Source: Escherichia coli
GTDB lineage: Bacteria > Pseudomonadota > Gammaproteobacteria > Enterobacterales > Enterobacteriaceae
DNA: 64,000 bases
Reading direction: 5' to 3' (one strand)
Assembly (NCBI RefSeq): GCF_046105845.1
Contig: NZ_CP151004.1
A program made the translations under genes and the position numbers. Positions 15,717 to 64,000 of the stretch are shown here, piece after piece (the first letter of the stretch is position 1; the number at the start of each line of letters is the position of its first letter). The notes under the pieces are model-generated. The model had not been told where the DNA came from, did no database searches, and saw only the letters and a list, made by a program, of their open reading frames with translations.

Positions 15717-19329
<3,613 letters not shown>

Positions 19330-24301: not shown

Positions 24302-24364
24302 AGACGTTTATTGTCGGATGCGCACCCATAGTATTCGTCGGCCGGATAAGACGCGGCAAGCGTC
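24302..24364. repeat. REP (repetitive extragenic palindromic) element(s)
   Basis: gccggataagacgcggcaagcgtcgcatccggc. Confidence 0.6.
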
Positions 24365-24403
24365 GCATCCGGCAATGTGCTTCAACTAGCGATGGAGCAC
24401 TTC

Positions 24404-44663: not shown

Positions 44664-44707
<44 letters not shown>

Positions 44708-49324: not shown

Positions 49325-49395
49325 CGGGTAGGCCTGATAAGACTGTATCAGGCATCATGGCCGGATGTGGCGTGAACGCCTTATCCGGCCGCTCA
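49325..49395. repeat. REP element cluster (two units)
   Basis: aggcctgataagactgtatcaggc and ggccggatgtggcgtgaacgccttatccggcc. Confidence 0.6.
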
Positions 49396-51651: not shown

Positions 51652-54600
51652 TTATTCCGGGCGCGGCTTCAGCGGGAAGCGGCGGCGCACCAGCACAAAG
51701 AACAGCGGCACGAAGTAAATAGCCAGAATAGTGGCCGAAATCATCCCGCCCATTACGCCAGTACCCACCGCATGCTGACCACCGGAACCGGCACCCGTGC
51801 TGGTTGCCATTGGCAATACGCCGAAGATAAATGCCAGCGAGGTCATCAGAATCGGGCGTAAACGCTGACGGCAGGCGTGGAGCGTCGCTTCAAACAGGTC
51901 GTGGCCTTTTTGGTTCATCTCGTTAGCAAACTCGACGATCAGGATGGCGTTTTTCGCCGATAAACCAATGACCGTTAACAGGCCCACCTGGAAGTAAACG
52001 TCGTTTTCCAGCCCGCGCATCCAGGTTGCCAGCAGCGCGCCGATAACCCCCAGCGGCACGACCAGCATTACCGAGAACGGCACCGACCAGCTTTCATACA
52101 GCGCCGCCAGACACAGGAATACCACCAGCAAGGAAATGGCGTACAGCGCCGGAGCCTGCGCGCCGGAAAGCCGCTCCTGATACGACATCGCCGTCCACTC
52201 CAGACCAAAGCCGTTTGGCAGCTGCTTCACTAACGATTCCATAATATCCATCGCCGTACCGGTACTGACCCCCGGTGCGGCTTCCCCGACAATCTCTACC
52301 GCAGAATAACCGTTATAGCGTTCCAGACGCGGCGAGCCTGTCTCCCAGCGTGAGGTCGCGAAAGCAGAGAAGGGCACCATGCCGCCATCTTTATTTCGGA
52401 CATACCAGAGATTGATGTCATCTGGCAGCATGCGATATGGCGCAGCTGCCTGCACATAGACTTTCTTCACGCGACCGCGATCCATAAAGTCATTCACATA
52501 GCTCGAACCCCAGGCGGTTTGCAGCGTGTCGTTAATATCGTCGATAGCAACGCCCAGCGCCTGAGCTTTACGCTGGTCGATATCGATCTGCAACTGCGGA
52601 CTGTCATCGAGGCCGTTATGGCGCACACGGGTTAGCTCCGGGTTTTCCGCCGCCAGCGCCAGCAACTGGTTACGTGCTGCCATCAGCGCATCGTGACCTG
52701 CCCCAGCGTGGTCCTGCAACTCCATATCAAAACCTGCAGAACTGCCAAGACCGCTAATTGCTGGCGGGCTGCTGGCGATAACGCGAGCTTCTTTAATCTT
52801 GTTAAACGCCTTCGTTGCACGCTCGATAATGGCAAACGAGGTGCCGGTCTTACTGTCGCGTTCGCTCCAGTCTTTCAGGCGGATAAACATTCGCGCCACG
52901 TTTTGCCCGTTACCCCCAGGGCCAGAACCAACGGTGGCAAACACCGACATGATGTTGTCTTTTTCATGGGTGAAGTAATATTTCTCGATTTGCTCAACGA
53001 CTTTCAGGGTCTGTTGTTGGGTTGAACCGCTGGGCAACTGTACCGAGGTAGTAAACATGCCACGGTCTTCAAGTGGCAAGAACGACGTCGGCAAACGCAG
53101 GAACAGGAACACCATGCCGCCAAGCAGCAGGACATAAATCACAATCCAGCGCAGGCTACGGTGGAGAATTTTCGCCACCCCTTTTTCGTAGCGTTCGGCG
53201 TTGCGGTTAAACATCTGGTTAAACCAGGCAAAAAAGCCTTTTTGCCCGTGATGCTCACCCTTTTTCAGTGGCTTAAGTAGCGTGGCACACAGAGCCGGAG
53301 TGAGGATCATCGCTACCAGTACTGACAGCACCATCGCCGCAACAATGGTAATAGAGAACTGGCGATAGATGGCACCGGTGGTGCCGCCGAAGAAGGCCAT
53401 TGGTACAAATACCGCCGAAAGCACCATCGCAATCCCGACCAGTGCCCCCTGGATCTGCCCCATCGATTTACGTGTGGCTTCGCGAGGAGTGAGTCCTTCC
53501 TCACTCATAATACGTTCGACGTTTTCCACCACCACGATGGCGTCATCCACCAGCAGACCGATCGCCAGCACCATCGCGAACATGGTTAAGGTGTTGACGC
53601 TGTAACCGAAGGCATAAAGTACGGAGAAGGTTCCCATCAACACCACCGGCACGGCAATAGTGGGTATCAGCGTGGCGCGGAAGTTTTGCAGGAACAGATA
53701 CATAACGAGGAAAACCAGAGCGATAGCTTCCAGCAGCGTTTTCACCACGTCTTCAATGGAGGCTTTAACAAACGAGGTGGTTTCATACGCCACCTTGTAT
53801 TCCAGTCCATGCGGGAAATACTGCGCCAGCTCGTCAAGACGATTGAGCACCAGCTCCGCTGTCGCCATTTCGTTCGCGCCGGAGGCCAGTTTTACCCCCA
53901 ACCCGGAGGCTGGCTTACCATTGAAGCGGCTAAGATAATCGTATTTCTCCGCCCCCATTTCGACGGTGGCGACATCGCCCAGCCTTACCTCTGAGCCGTC
54001 CTGATTCACCCGCAAGGTGATATCGCGGAACTGTTCTGGTGTTTGCAGCAGTGACTGGGCGTTAATGGTGGCGTTGAGCGCCTGCTTATCGACGGAAGGT
54101 GTACCACCAAGTTGCCCAACCGCAATCTGCGCGTTCTGTGACTCAATGGCATCAGTGACATCTTTAGCCGTCATCTGGAAACTGTTGAGTTTCGCCGGGT
54201 CCAGCCAGATACGCATGGAATATTGCGAACCATAGGCATCGATATCCCCGACGCCATTCACGCGGCTTAACGGATCCTGAATATTACTGGCAACGTAATC
54301 GGCAATATCCTGTTTATCCATCGAACCATCGGTAGAGACGAAGGCAATGGTCAGAATATTGGTATCGCCGGTTTTACGCACCGTCACGCCCTGATTTTGC
54401 ACCGCCTGCGGTAACTTTCGCATGGCTGATTGCAGCTGGTTTTGTACTTGCTGCACGGCTTCGTCCGGATCGGTGCCTGCTTTAAAACTTAAAGTGACAG
54501 ATGCCTGGCCGGTGCCACTGCTCTGAGACGACATATACATCAAATTATCGAGGCCGGTCATATTTTGCTCGATAACCTGGGTCACGGTGTTTTCCAGCGT

Positions 54601-54765
54601 CTGGGCCGATGCGCCGGGATAGTTAGCGGTCACTCGCACATTCGGTGGCGCGAGATCGGGGTATTGTTCAACGGGCAATGAAAAAATCGCCAGGGTCCCT
54701 GTCAGACACAACAGGATTGCCAGCACCCAGGCAAAAATGGGGCGATCAATAAAGAAATTCGCCAT
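51652..54765 (-). CDS. acrD: RND aminoglycoside/multidrug efflux pump AcrD
   Basis: 1037 aa; [19 protein letters not shown]; 12-TM RND architecture. Confidence 0.95.
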
Positions 54766-54835
54766 TAAAAGAGGACCTCGTGTTTCTGCGTATCGTTGTA
54801 GGCTTGACTTGCTTCACTGTAGCGGCAAGGTACGA

Positions 54836-54853
54836 GCCAATCGTGGAGAAAAA
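54836..54853 (-). promoter_or_regulatory. BaeR-box upstream of acrD
   Basis: Minus-strand TTTTTCTCCACGATTGGC, 17/18 match to recalled BaeR consensus TTTTTCTCCATDATTGGC; about 70-90 bp upstream of acrD ATG. Confidence 0.5.
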
Positions 54854-54928
54854 AAGGAGTTAATGTAAATTATCATGCCCTTTTATACTGAACTTTAAGG
54901 GCCAGTATTCTTTGGTCAGTCGGAGGCA

Positions 54929-56629
54929 TTACATCAGCTGACTTTCCTCACCCTCCGCGGAGCGAAAGCTAATACTCACTAACGTGCCGCCGCCGGAAGG
55001 TTGTGAAAAAGTCAGCGTCCCACCCAGCCGTTCCGCGCGCTCGCGCATGATATTCAGGCCATAATGACCTTCGGGTTCTTTCGGTTCACCGATGCCAATT
55101 CCGTTATCACGGATATAGACCGTGTGATTGCCGTCCGGCGCGGTGACGCAACTGACGGCGATTTCGCTGGCGTTGGCGTGCTTCATCGCATTCAGCACCG
55201 CTTCGCGAATAATTTGCAACAAATGCACCTGCATTTGCGCATCCAGCGCCAGGGTTGGCAGACGGCAGTCGAGGGTCAGTTTGGCGCTGGTTTGATTTTG
55301 TAACGTATCCAGCATTTCCCTCAACGCGGAGGGGAGATCTGCCTGCTGCAGCGTCAGGCGGAAAGTAGTCAACAGCTCGCGTAACTGCCGATAAGCATCA
55401 TTCAACGCTTGGGAAAAATCGGCCATGATACTTTGTGCGGTGGCGTTATCTTCCGGTATCGAACGCTTCAGTAACGTCAACTGGATACGTAAGTAAGAAA
55501 GTACCTGAGCCAGCGAGTCGTGCAATTCGCGGGCGATGGTCGCACGTTCTTCCATCAACAGTAACTGCTGAAAATGCTTCTGCGCCTGATTAAAGTACAA
55601 ACCGCGTCCCAGCATCGACGAAACGCTGTTAAGCAGCGGTTCTGATGATGAAACGTGACTATTTTGCCAGTGCAGTTCGCCGTAAACCGTCTCTTGCATT
55701 GTCACCGGTAAAATCTGCATCGGCAATTCCGGGTTTGGTTGCCCTTCGCTAATCCGCCAGTTTTCACCGACATTTAACTCCAGATATTCAGCCGCTTCGT
55801 TGTCGCGAACAATCTGCAAAATATGGCGGAAACAATGCACATCAATCTGGCTGGTGTTCAGTGCCTGCGAACACTGATACAACACCTCCAGGCGACGCTT
55901 GGCCTCGTGGAGGTCGCGGGTCTTTTCTTCTACTGACGCCTCCAGCGAACGGTACAATTTATGCAGCTCGCTCGACATCTGGTTAAAGGTTTTGGCAAGC
56001 AGGCCAAGCTCATTCGGCAGGCTGGTATCCAGCGGCGGCGAGTCGAACTGCCCGTGTTCAATACGCTGACTGGCGGTAACCAGCTGATTCAGCGGGGCAA
56101 CCACCTGATGGCGTATGCGGCGCAAAGTAAAAAAGACCAGCGTGAAAATACCGATGCCGCCAGCCAGGGAAATCGCCACCACCAGCAGCATTTTGCGTTC
56201 AGCGTAGTGCTGTAAAGCCAGTACGAACAGGTCTATCTGATTAACATAATTATTAATATTGGCCTGATACCACGGTAAATCGCCCTTGCTGAGCCGATTA
56301 TTCATCTCCAGCCAGTTGGCATTCAGATGCGCGTAGCGGGTTTTTACTGCCTCTGGCACATACCAGACGTTGAGATTGGTTAATACCGGTGAATGCAGTG
56401 CCTGCTGAAATAACTGCCGATGTGCATTGAGTTGTGGACTGCCACTTTGCAAGTCGTAGCCCAGGCGGTAACTCTGCATACGCAGCGATCCGGCAATATT
56501 GATAGCCTCAGCGTCGCGCAAACTGCTCGCCAGAGTTAGCAGAGCGATACCCGTGGAAAGAATCGACAGCAGCACAATGTAAAAAAAGGCCCGGGCCAGA
56601 CTGGCCGAGACGGGTCGTTTAACAATCAC
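54929..56629 (-). CDS. narQ: Nitrate/nitrite sensor histidine kinase NarQ (GTG start)
   Basis: 566 aa; HAMP, H-box HDSLAQ, ATPase motifs. Confidence 0.93.
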   Translation of the reverse strand: MIVKRPVSASLARAFFYIVLLSILSTGIALLTLASSLRDAEAINIAGSLRMQSYRLGYDLQSGSPQLNAHRQLFQQALHSPVLTNLNVWYVPEAVKTRYAHLNANWLEMNNRLSKGDLPWYQANINNYVNQIDLFVLALQHYAERKMLLVVAISLAGGIGIFTLVFFTLRRIRHQVVAPLNQLVTASQRIEHGQFDSPPLDTSLPNELGLLAKTFNQMSSELHKLYRSLEASVEEKTRDLHEAKRRLEVLYQCSQALNTSQIDVHCFRHILQIVRDNEAAEYLELNVGENWRISEGQPNPELPMQILPVTMQETVYGELHWQNSHVSSSEPLLNSVSSMLGRGLYFNQAQKHFQQLLLMEERATIARELHDSLAQVLSYLRIQLTLLKRSIPEDNATAQSIMADFSQALNDAYRQLRELLTTFRLTLQQADLPSALREMLDTLQNQTSAKLTLDCRLPTLALDAQMQVHLLQIIREAVLNAMKHANASEIAVSCVTAPDGNHTVYIRDNGIGIGEPKEPEGHYGLNIMRERAERLGGTLTFSQPSGGGTLVSISFRSAEGEESQLM

Positions 56630-56834
56630 ACGCGTCTTCTCCACAAAAAATCATTAATGTTCCAGTTCGCTGAAACACAATTTAGTCAGTGATGGGATTA
56701 TTTGATCTGCCACAGTTTATAGCGAAATAGTTACTTATTCTGGGCACATGAACATTGCCGATTCCCCTGTAAGTCGGGTAATAACAACACTCATATAAAG
56801 AATAAGGTTTTTACAACCAAAAAAGAAGGTCGTT

Positions 56835-58814
56835 ATGAATCGTTTTATTATGGCCAACAGTCAGCAATGTCTGGGGTGTCATGCTTGTGAAATCGCCTGT
56901 GTCATGGCTCACAATGATGAACAACATGTCTTGAGCCAACACCATTTTCATCCCCGAATTACGGTTATCAAACATCAGCAGCAACGTAGTGCAGTGACCT
57001 GTCACCATTGCGAAGATGCGCCCTGCGCCCGTAGCTGCCCTAATGGCGCAATCAGCCACGTTGATGACAGCATTCAGGTCAATCAGCAAAAGTGTATTGG
57101 CTGTAAATCCTGCGTCGTGGCCTGTCCATTTGGTACGATGCAAATCGTCCTGACACCCGTCGCGGCGGGCAAAGTAAAAGCCACGGCGCATAAATGCGAC
57201 CTTTGTGCAGGGCGCGAAAACGGTCCTGCTTGTGTCGAGAATTGCCCAGCGGACGCACTGCAACTGGTCACTGACGCCGCACTCTCAGGCATGGCGAAAT
57301 CCCGCCGCTTGCGTACCGCACGTCAGGAACATCAACCGTGGCATGCCAGTACCGCGGCGCAAGAAATGCCGGTAATGAGTAAAGTCGAGCAAATGCAGGC
57401 AACGCCCGCGCGTGGCGAGCCGGACAAACTGGCGATTGAAGCGCGTAAAACCGGTTTTGATGAAATTTATCTGCCATTCCGTGCCGATCAGGCACAACGG
57501 GAAGCCTCGCGCTGCCTTAAGTGCGGCGAGCACAGCATTTGTGAATGGACCTGCCCGCTGCATAACCATATTCCGCAGTGGATTGAACTGGTGAAAGCCG
57601 GAAACATCGACGCCGCCGTCGAGCTTTCTCACCAGACCAACACCCTGCCGGAAATTACCGGACGCGTTTGTCCGCAAGACCGTTTGTGTGAAGGAGCCTG
57701 TACTATTCGCGATGAGCACGGTGCAGTAACTATCGGCAACATTGAACGCTACATTTCAGATCAGGCGTTGGCGAAAGGTTGGCGTCCTGACTTAAGCCAT
57801 GTCACCAAAGTGGACAAGCGGGTGGCGATTATCGGTGCAGGTCCGGCAGGGCTGGCCTGTGCGGATGTTCTGACCCGCAATGGCGTGGCGGTGACGGTGT
57901 ACGATCGCCATCCAGAAATTGGTGGCTTGCTCACTTTCGGCATTCCTTCTTTCAAACTGGATAAATCCCTGCTGGCACGCCGTCGGGAAATCTTCAGCGC
58001 GATGGGGATTCACTTCGAACTCAATTGTGAAGTGGGTAAAGATGTCTCTTTGGATTCGCTTTTGGAACAATACGACGCGGTCTTCGTTGGCGTAGGCACT
58101 TACCGTTCCATGAAAGCGGGTTTACCCAATGAAGATGCGCCGGGCGTTTATGACGCGCTGCCGTTCCTCATTGCCAACACTAAACAGGTGATGGGGCTCG
58201 AAGAGCTACCGGAAGAGCCGTTTATCAATACCGCCGGACTCAACGTCGTGGTACTGGGCGGCGGCGACACCGCGATGGACTGTGTGCGTACCGCGCTGCG
58301 CCACGGCGCGAGTAACGTCACCTGCGCTTATCGTCGTGATGAAGCTAACATGCCAGGCTCGAAGAAAGAGGTGAAGAACGCCCGCGAAGAGGGGGCCAAC
58401 TTTGAATTTAACGTCCAGCCGGTGGCGCTTGAGCTGAATGAGCAAGGTCACGTTTGCGGAATTCGTTTCCTGCGCACGCGTCTTGGCGAGCCGGATGCCC
58501 AGGGGCGTCAGCGTCCAGTGCCGGTGGAAGGCAGTGAATTTGTCATGCCAGCCGACGCGGTGATTATGGCGTTTGGCTTCAATCCACACGGGATGCCGTG
58601 GCTGGAGTCGCACGGTGTAACGGTAGACAAATGGGGCCGCATCATCGCGGATGTGGAAAGCCAGTACCGTTACCAGACCACGAATCCGAAAATCTTCGCC
58701 GGTGGTGACGCCGTGCGTGGTGCGGATCTGGTGGTTACCGCAATGGCAGAAGGACGTCATGCGGCACAGGGGATTATTGACTGGCTGGGGGTAAAATCAG
58801 TCAAATCTCACTGA
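56835..58814 (+). CDS. aegA: Fe-S / FAD-NAD(P) oxidoreductase AegA
   Basis: 659 aa; N-terminal 4Fe-4S Cys clusters, C-terminal GltD-like GAGPAG motifs. Confidence 0.93.
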   Translation: MNRFIMANSQQCLGCHACEIACVMAHNDEQHVLSQHHFHPRITVIKHQQQRSAVTCHHCEDAPCARSCPNGAISHVDDSIQVNQQKCIGCKSCVVACPFGTMQIVLTPVAAGKVKATAHKCDLCAGRENGPACVENCPADALQLVTDAALSGMAKSRRLRTARQEHQPWHASTAAQEMPVMSKVEQMQATPARGEPDKLAIEARKTGFDEIYLPFRADQAQREASRCLKCGEHSICEWTCPLHNHIPQWIELVKAGNIDAAVELSHQTNTLPEITGRVCPQDRLCEGACTIRDEHGAVTIGNIERYISDQALAKGWRPDLSHVTKVDKRVAIIGAGPAGLACADVLTRNGVAVTVYDRHPEIGGLLTFGIPSFKLDKSLLARRREIFSAMGIHFELNCEVGKDVSLDSLLEQYDAVFVGVGTYRSMKAGLPNEDAPGVYDALPFLIANTKQVMGLEELPEEPFINTAGLNVVVLGGGDTAMDCVRTALRHGASNVTCAYRRDEANMPGSKKEVKNAREEGANFEFNVQPVALELNEQGHVCGIRFLRTRLGEPDAQGRQRPVPVEGSEFVMPADAVIMAFGFNPHGMPWLESHGVTVDKWGRIIADVESQYRYQTTNPKIFAGGDAVRGADLVVTAMAEGRHAAQGIIDWLGVKSVKSH

Positions 58815-58881
58815 TAGCCTGCGCAGACAAACCCGGCTTCACAGCGTAAGATAATTGTTCATTTCGCGCTGTGGAGTCGGT

Positions 58882-59457
58882 ATGACGCAACAAATCACCC
58901 TCATTAAAGACAAAATTCTCTCCGATAACTATTTCACCCTGCACAACATTACTTACGATCTCACGCGCAAAGATGGCGAAGTTATCCGCCATAAACGTGA
59001 AGTTTACGATCGCGGTAATGGTGCAACGATCCTCCTGTACAACGCGAAGAAAAAGACCGTGGTTCTGATTCGTCAGTTCCGCGTCGCTACCTGGGTTAAT
59101 GGCAATGAAAGCGGGCAGCTGATTGAAACCTGCGCCGGGCTGCTGGATAACGACGAACCGGAAGTGTGTATTCGTAAAGAAGCGATTGAAGAGACGGGTT
59201 ATGAAGTTGGCGAAGTGCGCAAATTATTTGAACTGTATATGTCGCCAGGCGGTGTGACTGAGCTAATCCACTTCTTTATCGCCGAATACAGTGACAGCCA
59301 GCGCGCTAACGCCGGTGGTGGTGTCGAAGATGAAGATATTGAAGTGCTCGAGCTGCCGTTCAACAAGGCGCTGGAGATGATCAAAACCGGTGAGATACGT
59401 GACGGTAAGACGGTGTTATTGCTTAACTATTTGCAAATGTCACATTTAATGGACTGA
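58882..59457 (+). CDS. nudK: GDP-mannose pyrophosphatase NudK (Nudix)
   Basis: 191 aa from [11 protein letters not shown]; Nudix box. Confidence 0.92.
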
Positions 59458-59489
59458 AAAATAACAATAATATTTCGTTGTTTATTATT

Positions 59490-59517
59490 GGCTCAATCCG
59501 ATAAATCCGATTGAGCC
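59490..59517 (+). other. Hairpin downstream of nudK
   Basis: ggctcaatc ... gattgagcc 9-bp arms. Confidence 0.35.
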
Positions 59518-59582
59518 GCGCTACCTGCGCAACGAAGATACGACTTGTGCTGTTTGTTTGAACTTCTGGGGTCGTACCGTCC

Positions 59583-60626
59583 ATGCGCTATCGCATTTTC
59601 CTTCTCTTTTTTTTCGCTTTGTTGCCGACGTCTTTGGTGTGGGCGGCACCAGCGCAACGGGCGTTTTCCGACTGGCAGGTCACCTGTAATAACCAAAACT
59701 TCTGCGTGGCGCGTAATACGGGCGATCATAACGGACTGGTGATGACCCTGAGCCGCAGCGCCGGGGCGCATACCGATGCCGTTTTACGTATTGAGCGCGG
59801 CGGGTTGAAGTCGCCGGATGCGTCTGAAGGGGAGATAGCGCCACGGCTGCTGTTAGATGGTGAGCCGTTGGCGTTAAGTGGTGACAAGTGGCGGATTTCA
59901 CCATGGTTACTAGTAACCGATGATACGGCAACCATCACCGCGTTTTTGCAGCTGATTCAGGAAGGGAAGGCGATCACCTTACGCGATGGCAATCAGACCA
60001 TTTCTCTGAATGGCTTAAAAGCGGCGTTGTTGTTTATTGATGCTCAGCAAAAGCGCGTTGGCAGTGAAACCGCGTGGATAAAGAAAGGGGACGAACCGCC
60101 GCTCAGCGTACCGCCCGCGCCTGCGCTGAAAGAGGTCGCGGTGGTTAACCCAACGCCGACGCCACTCTCACTCGAAGAACGTAACGATTTGCTGGATTAT
60201 GGAAACTGGCGGATGAATGGTCTGCGCTGCTCGCTTGATCCGTTACGTCGTGAGGTGAATGTCACTGCGCTGACCGATGATAAAGCACTGATGATGATTA
60301 GCTGTGAGGCAGGGGCCTATAACACCATTGATTTGGCCTGGATTGTGTCGCGTAAAAAGCCACTGGCCTCGCGCCCGGTTCGGTTACGTTTGCCGTTCAA
60401 CAGCGGTCAGGAGACGAATGAACTGGAACTGATGAACGCAACATTTGATGAGAAATCGCGTGAACTGGTGACCTTAGCGAAAGGGCGCGGATTAAGCGAT
60501 TGTGGCATTCAGGCGCGCTGGCGCTTTGACGGTCAGCGTTTTCGCCTGGTGCGTTACGCCGCAGAACCCACCTGCGATAACTGGCATGGGCCAGACGCCT
60601 GGCCCACGTTGTGGATCACCCGTTAA
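59583..60626 (+). CDS. ypfG: DUF1176 periplasmic protein YpfG
   Basis: 347 aa; signal peptide; K-12 synteny. Confidence 0.9.
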   Translation: MRYRIFLLFFFALLPTSLVWAAPAQRAFSDWQVTCNNQNFCVARNTGDHNGLVMTLSRSAGAHTDAVLRIERGGLKSPDASEGEIAPRLLLDGEPLALSGDKWRISPWLLVTDDTATITAFLQLIQEGKAITLRDGNQTISLNGLKAALLFIDAQQKRVGSETAWIKKGDEPPLSVPPAPALKEVAVVNPTPTPLSLEERNDLLDYGNWRMNGLRCSLDPLRREVNVTALTDDKALMMISCEAGAYNTIDLAWIVSRKKPLASRPVRLRLPFNSGQETNELELMNATFDEKSRELVTLAKGRGLSDCGIQARWRFDGQRFRLVRYAAEPTCDNWHGPDAWPTLWITR

Positions 60627-60639
60627 ACAAAATCCCAGA

Positions 60640-60722
60640 TGCGGCCCTAAAAAGCGCACGGACCGTCCCCTCGCCCCTCTGGGGAGAGGGTTAGGGTGAG
60701 GGGAACATACAGCATCCGGCGA
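60640..60722. repeat. GC-rich imperfect palindromic intergenic repeat (REP/BoxC-like) between ypfG and tktB
   Basis: cgtcccctcgcccctctggggagagggttagggtgaggggaaca ... gcatccggc. Confidence 0.4.
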
Positions 60723-60728
60723 TCACCA

Positions 60729-62732
60729 TCAGGCACCTTTCACTCCCAGCACCTTATGCGCTTTTGCCACAATATTCTCGGCGGTTAAGCCAAAGAACGG
60801 GAACAGCTTATCCGCCGGAGCAGATTCCCCATAACCTGTCATCCCGACAATTGCCCCTTTCAGGCCAACATATTTGTACCAGTAATCGGCAATACCCGCT
60901 TCCACCGCCACGCGAGCCGCAACGTTAGAAGGCAACACCGACTCGCGATATTCCTCATCCTGGGCGTCGAAAATATCGGTCGAGGGCAGGGAAACTACGC
61001 GTACATTGCGACCTTCTCCCGCTAATTTCTCTGCCGCTTGCAGGGTGATTTCCATCTCTGAACCGGTGGCAATCAAAATAATATCTGGCTTACCGCCGCT
61101 GTCTTTCAGTACATAACCGCCACGAGCAATCTCTTTAACCTGATCCGGCGTACGTTCCACCTGGGCCAGATTCTGCCTGGAGAGGATCAGTGCCGTCGGT
61201 CCGTTGTGGCGCTCAACCGCCAGCTTCCAGCCCACCGCAGCTTCCACCTGATCGCACGGTCGCCAGGTGCTGAAATTTGGCGTTAAGCGCAGACTGGCCA
61301 GTTGCTCAACAGCCTGGTGCGTAGGACCATCTTCGCCCAGACCAATTGAGTCGTGGGTATAAACCATAATCTGCCGCGCTTTCATCAGTGCCGCCATCCG
61401 CGCGGCGTTACGGGCGTATTCAACAAACATCAGGAACGTCGCGGTATACGGCACAAAGCCGCCGTGGTGCGCAATGCCGTTGGCGATAGCGGTCATGCCA
61501 AATTCACGCACCCCGTAGTGAATGTAGTTGCCCGCCGGATCTTCCTTCAGCGAAACAGAACCTTTCCAGATGGTCAGGTTGCTGGGAGCCAGATCCGCCG
61601 AACCGCCGAGCAGCTCCGGTAGCATCGGCCCGTAAGCGTTAAGCGTATTTTGCGAAGCCTTACGGGTAGCGATTTTCGCCGGATTTGCCTGTAACTCATT
61701 GATATATTTCTGAGTCGTTTTCTCCCAGTCCTTCGGTAAACCACCGCTCATCCGACGGGTAAACTCTTCTGCCAGTTGCGGATGAGCCTTTTTATAGGCG
61801 GCAAACTTCTCATTCCAGCTCTGCTGCGCTTTTTCGCCTTTTTCGCGGGCATCCCAGGCGTGATAAATCTCTTTAGGGATTTCAAATGGCGGATGGTGCC
61901 AGCCCAGTTTTTGCCGTGCCAGCGCCACTTCTTCTTCCCCCAGCGGTGCGCCGTGCGCCTCTTCCTTACCTGCTTTATTCGGCGAACCAAAGCCAATTAC
62001 CGTACGGCAGATAATCAGCGACGGCTTATCTTTCACGCTTTGCGCTTCAAGGATCGCTTCCTTCACCGCCTGCGGATCGTGACCGTCGATCTCGTGGATC
62101 ACATGCCAGTGATAGGCTTCAAAACGTTTTGCCGTATCGTCGGTAAACCAGCCTTCGGTTTCACCGTCGATGGAAATACCGTTGTGATCGTAAAAACCAA
62201 TCAGTTTGCCCAGTCCCAGCGTGCCCGCCAGCGAACAGACTTCGTGGGAAATACCTTCCATCAGGCAACCGTCGCCCATAAACACATAGGTGAAGTGATC
62301 GACAATTTCATGATCCGGCTGGTTAAACTGCGCCGCCAGTGTACGCTCTGCTATCGCCAGCCCGACGGCGTTCGCCAAACCTTGTCCAAGTGGACCGGTG
62401 GTGGTTTCAACACCTGGCGTATAACCAATCTCCGGGTGACCTGGGGTTTTTGAATGCAACTGACGGAAGTTCTTCAGCTCTTCCAGCGGCAGGTCGTAAC
62501 CGGTCAGATGCAGCAAACTGTAGAGCAGCATCGACGCGTGGCCGTTGGAAAGAATAAAGCGGTCGCGATCATACCAGGTTGGGTCGGTAGGATTATGTTT
62601 AAGAAAATCGTTCCACAGCACTTCGGCAATATCAGCCATGCCCATCGGCGCGCCGGGATGACCAGAATTGGCTTTTTGTACCGCATCCATACTGAGTGCG
62701 CGAATCGCATTGGCAAGGTCTTTTCGGGACAT
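60729..62732 (-). CDS. tktB: Transketolase 2 TktB
   Basis: 667 aa from [27 protein letters not shown]; ORF track extends 21 codons upstream. Confidence 0.95.
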
Positions 62733-62751
62733 ATAACACTCCGTGGCTGGT

Positions 62752-63702
62752 TTATAGTTTGGCGGCAAGAAGATCTTCCAGTTTGCGTTGATCAACGGCG
62801 AACAGACGAATGCCTTCAGACAGTTTTTCTACCGCCATCGCATCCTGATTGTGCTCCCAACGGAACTCCGCTTCGCTCATGGGAGCTGGGCGTGGGAACG
62901 TCTGAGAAGGTGGGATTAATTTACGTACCACTGGCGAAACTTTTTCCTGCAGCTCCTTCAGCAAATTCGGTGCGATAGTCAGTCGATCGCAGCCGGTTAA
63001 GGCGAGGATTTGTTCGGTGCGACGGAAGCTCGCGCCCATCACAATGGTTTCATAGTGGTGTTGCTTATAGTAGTCGTAGATATTGCGCACCGATTTAACG
63101 CCCGGATCTTCTTCCACCACATACGGGTCCATCGGCTTGCGTGCCTGATACCAGTCATAAATACGCCCGACAAACGGCGAAATCAGAAATACGCCTGCTT
63201 CTGCACAGGCCCGCGCCTGTGCAAAAGAAAACAGCAGCGTCAGGTTGCAGTTAATACCTTCTTTTTCCAGCTCTTCTGCCGCGCGAATTCCTTCCCAGGT
63301 TGAAGCCAGCTTGATCAGAATGCGTGATTTCTCAACGCCTTGTTGCTGATACAAGTCCACCAGATGGCGCGCCTTCTCAATGCTCTTTTCTTTATCAAAA
63401 GAGAGGCGTGCATCAACTTCTGTTGACACGCGACCGGGTACGATTTTGAGAATTTCAGCACCGAAATTGACCGCCAGTTTGTCACATGCTGCGACCACCT
63501 GTTGTTCCTGGGTTTTGCCATTTTTTCTACCCCAGGCGATAGCATCGTCTATTAAATGCTCATATTGTGATAATCCGGCAGCCTTGAGTAACAGCGAAGG
63601 ATTGGTGGTGGCATCCTGGGGATGATAATGGCGAATGGACTCAATATCGCCGCTGTCTGCCACGACAGTGGTGAACTGTTTGATGCCGTCTAACTCGTTC
63701 AT
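62752..63702 (-). CDS. talA: Transaldolase A TalA
   Basis: 316 aa; [21 protein letters not shown]. Confidence 0.95.
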
Positions 63703-63990
63703 AGGAAATACTCCTTGAAAAGTAAAGTGTTAGATGAGTGCGTTAATTCACACTTCTGAGAAATTTCGCTAAACGCATCAAAAAAGCATAGCAGACAGGC
63801 ATGGTATTGCTGGATTAAGCAGGTAACATCAGTGTTATAGGATTATTACCAAAACATTATATTAATGGTGAGAGTTTGGACTTGCTCAAAGTCTGTAGAC
63901 TCCGGCAAGGTAATAATGTGCGCCACGTTGTGGGCAGGGGCTGTTGCCCACACACTTTATTTGTGAACGTTACGTGAAAGGAACAACCAA

Positions 63991-64000
63991 ATGGATGACC
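63991..64000 (+). CDS. maeB: Start of NADP-malic enzyme MaeB (only first 3 codons in window)
   Basis: ATG GAT GAC (MDD...) with RBS gaaagga upstream; K-12 synteny after talA; too short to verify. Confidence 0.4.

Follow-up and report, generated by a model that had tools for sequence, protein, structure and literature searches.

A BoxC (PIT/TMECO) repeat between the convergent genes ypfG and tktB of Escherichia coli, at a site that carries a REP hairpin in other strains

Introduction

The element described here is closest to a repeat that, according to the account given in PMC4666352, was named BoxC in the 1990s, PIT (potential intrastrand triplex) by Hoyne et al. 2000 and TMECO by Holder et al. 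2015. The sources on the family are Bachellier et al. 1999, Hoyne et al. 2000, Hoyne & Maher 2002 and Holder et al. 2015, as covered by PMC4666352. BoxC has been described as a 56-bp repeat with 32 copies (PMC2267715) and 23 copies are given for K-12 (PMC4666352); published copy numbers for E. coli span 22-32. In a broader survey, Holder et al. found 3,610 BoxC/TMECO copies in 262 proteobacterial genomes (PMC4666352). The core consensus reads 5'-CCCTCNCCC N3-6 GGGNGAGGG N3 GGGNGAGGG[G/T/C/-]-3' (PMC4666352), i.e. one C-rich arm is followed by two G-rich arms.

Several physical properties of the repeat have been published. The G-rich strand forms a stable purine-motif (class II) intrastrand triplex in vitro as judged by CD and NMR, which were applied to oligonucleotides of type A and type B, with and without a mismatch, and the element stops DNA polymerase in vitro (PMC4666352). 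In vivo DMS footprinting did not detect the triplex (Holder et al., PMC4666352). PIT elements had neither promoter nor terminator activity and no in vivo effect in the work of Hoyne & Maher 2002, as it is cited in PMC4666352. TMECO loci are more variable between E. coli strains than control intergenic sites (PMC4666352). In the literature after 2015 on TMECO, potential intrastrand triplex and BoxC we found reviews citing the earlier work and no newer functional study.

It is useful to compare BoxC with REP/BIME (PU) elements, intrinsic terminators and H-DNA. Like BoxC, REP/BIME elements are short GC-rich palindromic repeats of transcribed 3' spacers and form hairpins of -24 to -26 kcal/mol, but the BoxC core is unrelated to them: it consists of one C-rich and two G-rich arms, whereas REP is a simple hairpin with a GTAG foot, and it is present in about 20 copies as opposed to several hundred REPs. 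We know of no RAYT transposase that is associated with BoxC. Intrinsic terminators resemble the present case in that a GC-rich stem-loop lies just past the stop codons between convergent genes; however, BoxC lacks the adjoining U-tract (a T/U run within 0-2 nt), and both a terminator scan and the published reporter tests were negative. Finally, the mirror repeats that form H-DNA (triplex) share with BoxC the homopurine/homopyrimidine blocks able to form G.G:C triads, but in BoxC the fold, as known in vitro, is intrastrand, with a single strand turning back on itself twice, and not H-DNA in a duplex.

Results

Identity and architecture of the element

The window, i.e. the whole 64-kb stretch of E. 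coli DNA that was analysed, contains two convergent genes, ypfG (59583-60626, + strand), encoding a DUF1176 protein with a 347-aa translation, and tktB (60729-62732, - strand), encoding transketolase 2 with a 667-aa translation from ATG. Both were identified from the open reading frame list and from RefSeq annotation, in the case of ypfG that of near-identical matches. The ypfG stop ends at 60626 and that of tktB lies at 60729, so the spacer measures 102 bp from stop codon to stop codon, and the element lies within it, downstream of both genes as the earlier note had it. Two open reading frames in the list, 60502-60699 (+) and 60492-60659 (-), overlap ypfG and the repeat; they were treated as mechanical. 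The K-12 RefSeq record has only CDS features at ypfG-tktB and gives neither repeat features nor a name for the element. The window is 97.5% identical to K-12 over 7.6 kb, and the best identity for its part 52000-64000 among 5,426 complete E. coli genomes was 98.8% over 12 kb; its lineage seems poorly represented among complete RefSeq E. coli genomes.

The palindrome quoted in the earlier note is present at 60667-60703 and is not a product of chance, given that for the 21-mer GGAGAGGGTTAGGGTGAGGGG the window has one match where 0.00 are expected and that the element is multicopy in all but one of the genomes searched. The description as an imperfect palindrome holds as well: a repeat search returned inverted arms of 11 nt at 60666-60676 and 60694-60704, which are 17 nt apart and 91% complementary. 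The true architecture, however, goes beyond a two-armed palindrome and consists of three blocks. The 36-nt core CCCTCGCCCCTCTGGGGAGAGGGTTAGGGTGAGGGG (60668-60703, + strand) fits the BoxC/PIT/TMECO consensus exactly, the regular expression matching 60668-60702 and a G following at 60703. Within the core, and on the same strand, block 1 is the C-rich arm CCCTCGCCC (60668-60676, coordinates checked), which is followed by loop 1, CTCTG (60677-60681), whose first and last bases lengthen the stem between blocks 1 and 2. Block 2 is the G-rich arm GGGAGAGGG (60682-60690), also located by the consensus expression. Loop 2, TTA (60691-60693), is the mark of 'type A' in the scheme of Holder et al. (PMC4666352), and the second G-rich arm, block 3 GGGTGAGGG (60694-60702), forms together with the terminal G (60694-60703) the outer arm of the inverted repeat. 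Block 1 is complementary to block 2 and to block 3, with one central mismatch in each case.

With TTA as loop 2 and a mismatch in the central triplet, the window copy falls into subtype 'A mm', one of the classes of oligonucleotide studied by CD and NMR and the commonest subtype in K-12 (13 of the 23 copies in the table of PMC4666352). Its 36-mer is identical to four of the 23 K-12 copies (rows 9, 16, 19 and 22 of Table 1 in PMC4666352), and the supplement of Holder et al. (PMC4666352), which is without gene names, lists the exact 36-mer 87 times among strains.

The similarity to other copies extends beyond the core. When the window copy and the 10 single K-12 copies were anchored on the core and compared, a BoxC unit with conserved tails could be delimited at about 60647-60707 (+ strand), close to the published 56 bp. 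Its 5' tail CTAAAAAGCGCACGGACCGTC (60647-60667, + strand) is moderately conserved between copies: the upstream consensus CAAAAACGCGCACGGACGGTC is supported by 4-11 of the 11 copies per position, mostly by at least 6, from -21 to -1, with further decay upstream. The conserved tail of BoxC is GCGCACGGAC. On the other side there is a short 3' tail, AACA (60704-60707, + strand), within the downstream consensus GAACA that is supported by 6-11 of the 11 copies per position. The element thus shares with the K-12 copies the 5' and 3' tails, a unit of about 56 bp, an intergenic and chromosomal location, a copy number of about 20 per genome and subtype A with the central mismatch. The one difference is that ypfG-tktB is missing from the 23 K-12 sites, because K-12 carries a REP there; the element itself is identical in kind. 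It is an ordinary copy of the known BoxC (PIT, TMECO) repeat and not a new one, which bears out the suggestion that it belongs to another interspersed repeat family; BoxC was among the families listed in the earlier note for comparison.

The relation to REP, also raised in the earlier note, can be put more precisely. The REP sites cited there for comparison do hold REP sequences, which a consensus search placed at 24337-24373, 44671-44704 and 49328-49389. The last of these contains two REP-like units in inverted orientation (BIME). The element at ypfG-tktB differs from canonical REP, as had been proposed: the REP consensus hairpin (GCCGGATGCGGCG ... CTTATCCGGCCTAC, with the GTAG foot) has no match in the BoxC core and matches only in the flanks, where the description of the borders as REP-like is true in substance. 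To the left, CCCAGATGCGGC (60634-60645, + strand) resembles a REP head, with two mismatches to the 12-mer GCCGGATGCGGC in a regular expression search, and in an alignment made by eye it compares with GGCGGATGCGGC of the two-REP (BIME) allele of locus L022. To the right lies the half-site GCATCCGGCGATCA (60712-60725, + strand), which corresponds to the end-of-REP unit in the REP alleles of the same spacer; the REP 12-mer expression also matches the - strand at 60709-60720 with two mismatches. Judging from the 10 alleles compared below, the right flank is a real REP remnant.

Copy number and genomic settings

To determine the copy number, 58 bp of the window (60655-60712) were used to search 5,426 complete E. 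coli genomes. Matches were present in 5,425 of them, at a median of 19 places per genome (range 3-34), so that a single-copy sequence, which the earlier note had named as the outcome that would speak against a repeat, is not what we find. The places are 99.9% chromosomal (96,151 chromosomal, 70 plasmid). Genomes without BoxC at ypfG-tktB have their best match at another locus, where 55 of the 58 bases (60656-60710) align at about 93% identity. In the 64-kb window there are no further BoxC copies besides that at 60647-60707.

Of the 10 single K-12 copies, six have convergent neighbours and four co-directional ones; divergent neighbours do not occur. The co-directional copies are those at pstA-pstB (inside the pst operon), yihS-yihR, adk-hemH and ycjD-fabI, two in each orientation relative to transcription.

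Outside E. coli, we surveyed the neighbourhoods of YpfG relatives in 80 enterobacterial species (one genome per species, 10 kb of flank on each side, 1.49 Mb altogether). The strict BoxC motif gave 16 matches in 9 of the 80 species, including members of Enterobacter, Leclercia, Phytobacter and Pseudenterobacter. Many of the matches in other genera are inverted pairs of a type A and a type B copy, an arrangement that, going by PMC4666352, was described by Holder et al. and Hoyne et al.

In Enterobacter, Leclercia, Pseudenterobacter and relatives, BoxC copies cluster at one conserved site after the gene end ttacagcggctg..., about 5.6 kb downstream of ypfG (loci L043, L067, L068, L070, L082, L083 and L092, at about 16,550-16,950). 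Most of these copies form inverted pairs of type A with type B; at L082 as many as three are found at this site, with one more elsewhere. Judging from the gene order, the site is probably the end of maeB. The orthologous position in our E. coli falls beyond the end of the window.

Phytobacter diazotrophicus (L050, 11137-11170) presents a different picture, with an independent BoxC downstream of ypfG in the opposite orientation and after a canonical-looking terminator hairpin. The spacer after ypfG has therefore been colonised by BoxC separately in this distant genus.

Folding

Folding was calculated with ViennaRNA, in which only Watson-Crick and wobble pairs are considered. As RNA, the 43-nt core of the + strand gave -26.2 kcal/mol (z -3.2; 3 of 200 shuffles were equally stable), that of the - strand -21.1 kcal/mol (z -2.4); folded as DNA, the values were -12.4 (+) and -9.7 (-) kcal/mol. 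The REP that occupies the ypfG-tktB slot in K-12 gave -24.5 and -26.0 kcal/mol, which is about equal to the BoxC core. The whole 102-nt spacer did not fold significantly better than its shuffles (z -1.4 and -1.7 for the two strands). In the predicted folds of the spacer the left and right REP remnants pair with each other.

Covariation was found at the ends of loop 1. Among 39 copies (the 23 of K-12 and the 16 of other genera), the first and last bases of the loop are C..G in 23 and T..A in 11, mixed combinations are absent (0), and the remaining 5 copies have a 3-nt loop 1. Both loop-closing pair types are found with either central base of block 1. In these sequences the covariation supports a stem between block 1 and block 2, in DNA as well as in RNA.

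When 60300-61000 was searched against Rfam 15 with permissive thresholds, no family reached its gathering score; the best match was Antizyme_FSE with 22.3 bits vs 40 (E 0.032), all others having E > 1. We regard the sub-threshold matches (Antizyme_FSE, pestivirus, miRNA and CRISPR-DR models) as chance resemblance to GC-rich stems.

Alleles of the ypfG-tktB spacer

Ten alleles of the spacer were compared. The BoxC class measures 102 bp (the window and FDAARGOS_497), while the REP class (K-12, 13E0767, 0H25, Ecol_542 and EC13) ranges from 76 to 137 bp. The K-12 allele is a 94-bp spacer that contains a REP hairpin with partial duplications and is devoid of BoxC. All 10 alleles have the same borders: the left edge is ACAAAAT (60627-60633 in the window), from which a few strains depart by a single substituted base, and the right edge is GCATCCGGC[G/A]ATCACCA. 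Between them, the REP alleles vary in a duplicated half-REP and in the number of copies (1-5) of the 14-bp unit GCATCCGGC[A/G]ATCA, i.e. the REP half-site at the right edge stands there in one to five tandem copies. In its behaviour this unit, which derives from a REP stem, resembles a small variable-number tandem repeat. It has 2-5 tandem copies in REP alleles of other strains (L014, L016), and the five of EC13 go with its 137-bp spacer.

With a junction-specific query (60612-60672), the BoxC allele was counted at ypfG-tktB in 829 of the 5,426 E. coli genomes (15%); K-12 and most other strains have the REP hairpin in this slot. One of the 829 is the O157:H7 strain TR01 (L102, 224-300), in which the BoxC allele has lost 10 nt including block 1, a loss that precludes both the hairpin and the triplex. 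The other O157:H7 genomes among the matches listed carry the REP allele at ypfG-tktB, and therefore the TR01 spacer may have been acquired by recombination.

The comparison can be carried beyond E. coli proper. Escherichia sp. E1V33 has an orthologous BoxC allele in a region that is 91.8% identical to the window over 14 kb. Because of this low identity, the BoxC of ypfG-tktB must be regarded as an old copy and not as a recent insertion, and BoxC and REP states therefore both persist in the genus. The three 9-nt blocks are identical in E1V33 and the window, and loop 1 and the flanks differ. The identity of the blocks may point to selection on the element and would then run counter to a copy without function, but by our own estimate zero changes in 27 nt at about 8% divergence are expected about 11% of the time. 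E. whittamii and the strain of L022 (labelled E. coli SCPM-O-B-8794, divergent) have two inverted REPs (BIME) in the spacer, and several Citrobacter species have no ypfG-tktB spacer at all.

Discussion

The best explanation of the element, and in our judgement very likely the correct one, is that it is a BoxC copy without a locus-specific role. It would thus have no role specific to ypfG or tktB, and may be seen as a structured, non-autonomous repeat that seems to be tolerated only where promoters and coding sequence stay undisturbed. By analogy with the REP hairpin of the other allele, it probably serves as a generic stable stem-loop at the 3' end of both convergent transcripts: since the REP hairpin and the BoxC core are similarly stable, either allele would leave a comparable stem-loop at both transcript 3' ends. 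Folding of the single-stranded DNA probably also favours slippage in the spacer as well as its deletion and replacement, the connection of structure with instability being correlative. As an annotation, the label should be BoxC (PIT/TMECO) and not terminator, sRNA or new repeat.

The earlier note considered that the element might instead be a convergent terminator, and some observations favour a bidirectional intrinsic terminator that serves both ypfG and tktB. BoxC sits between convergent stop codons 102 bp apart, it is the sole strong hairpin of the spacer and folds on both strands, no other terminator-like site was detected in 60400-60950, and the tktB-sense strand has a run of five U residues 13 nt past the stem. 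However, there is no U-tract adjoining the stem on either strand, and a terminator consensus scan of 60400-60950 was negative on both. Members of the family moreover lie inside operons (the four co-directional K-12 copies named above), where termination would do harm, and they do so without a preference for one orientation; in reporter tests, terminator activity was absent according to what PMC4666352 cites from Hoyne & Maher 2002. The terminator reading is thus not supported and quite improbable. An even less probable reading is that of a small RNA or a cis-regulatory RNA structure. The fold is indeed stable on both strands, the loop-closing bases covary, and for the BoxC family a common structure was predicted by RNAz (PMC2267715). 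Yet a promoter consensus scan near the element found no promoter-like site, no Rfam family reaches threshold, BoxC copies show no orientation bias relative to transcription, and the covariation fits a hairpin in DNA just as well as one in RNA. A reading that can practically be discounted is that of a diverged REP/BIME unit instead of a member of a separate family. It would draw on the REP-like sequences on both flanks (60634-60645 and 60712-60725) and on the fact that REP fills the same slot in other strains, but the 36-nt core does not resemble the REP consensus, BoxC copies with an identical core occur away from any REP, and BoxC and PU-BIME are treated as separate families (PMC2267715). For the core, the diverged-REP reading is refuted by the match to the BoxC consensus, by the REP-negative core and by the REP-free BoxC copies.

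The alternative that we hold to be the least improbable, although still unlikely, concerns DNA instead of RNA. Holder et al. speculated (PMC4666352) that such elements are kept for an effect on DNA, i.e. that a transient triplex or hairpin stalls replication forks, promotes rearrangement and so provides adaptive variation. The triplex and the polymerase stop seen in vitro and the variability of TMECO loci, which exceeds that of control intergenic sites (PMC4666352), speak for this idea. At ypfG-tktB there are at least three allele classes and in addition the variant that has lost block 1, and the K-12 BoxC spacers adk-hemH and zntA-tusA are rearranged in other strains, too. On the other hand, no triplex signal was obtained in vivo, and when double-stranded the element is an ordinary duplex (PMC4666352). 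Much of the variability at ypfG-tktB resides in REP alleles with their 1-5 tandem 14-bp units, so the instability is not specific to BoxC; it may also be a side-effect and not a selected function, and a comparison of this kind cannot separate cause from the settling of repeats in permissive, fast-changing spacers. We retain the reading of a BoxC copy without a locus-specific role. The locus is in any case a strain-variable site of the kind described by Holder et al. (PMC4666352), and it constitutes a natural experiment: an intact BoxC is present in about 15% of E. coli genomes, an equally strong REP hairpin in most others, and a BoxC devoid of block 1 in at least one strain. With these natural alleles, the ideas of a generic 3' hairpin and of instability can be tested on mRNA 3' ends, mRNA stability and local mutation rates.

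A mildly new point is the allelic alternation of BoxC and REP at ypfG-tktB, the junctions of which may hint at replacement rather than insertion. On the right, both allele classes end in the REP half-site GCATCCGGCG; the BoxC allele retains the REP-head remnant on its left side, and the BoxC and REP states are each found in more than one Escherichia species. In addition, the two-REP allele of L022 has the 8-mer GCACGGAC directly before the second REP, and the same 8-mer is part of the BoxC 5' tail (60656-60663 in the window). This shared 8-mer could be left over from a replacement between BoxC and REP, or could be coincidental; we estimate the chance at about 0.03 if no positional constraint is imposed. 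One could go further and speculate that BoxC and REP are alternative cassettes that swap at common junctions, as opposed to BoxC being inserted into an empty site. This stronger version appears rather unlikely to us. If it were true, the spread or erasure of BoxC would proceed through template switching guided by the hairpin, through gene conversion or through single-strand cleavage and joining of the REP type, and not through a transposition with target-site duplication; this would give a first handle on the mobility of the family.

The ends of the unit and a possible target-site duplication were looked for at adk-hemH and zntA-tusA, and neither site provided a clean pair of filled and empty alleles. 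At zntA-tusA, UTI89 retains BoxC and has three REPs inserted beside it. At adk-hemH, a segment of roughly 135 nt that holds BoxC is swapped for an unrelated 55-nt spacer in about half of E. coli genomes, a further case in which a BoxC locus has had a whole segment replaced. These changes match the 'intergenic change' category of Holder et al. (PMC4666352). The K-12 spacer at adk-hemH (L003, 1321-1555) contains a terminator-like hairpin in addition to BoxC, and the 55-nt replacement in O157:H7 EDL933 (L100) has a hairpin of its own.
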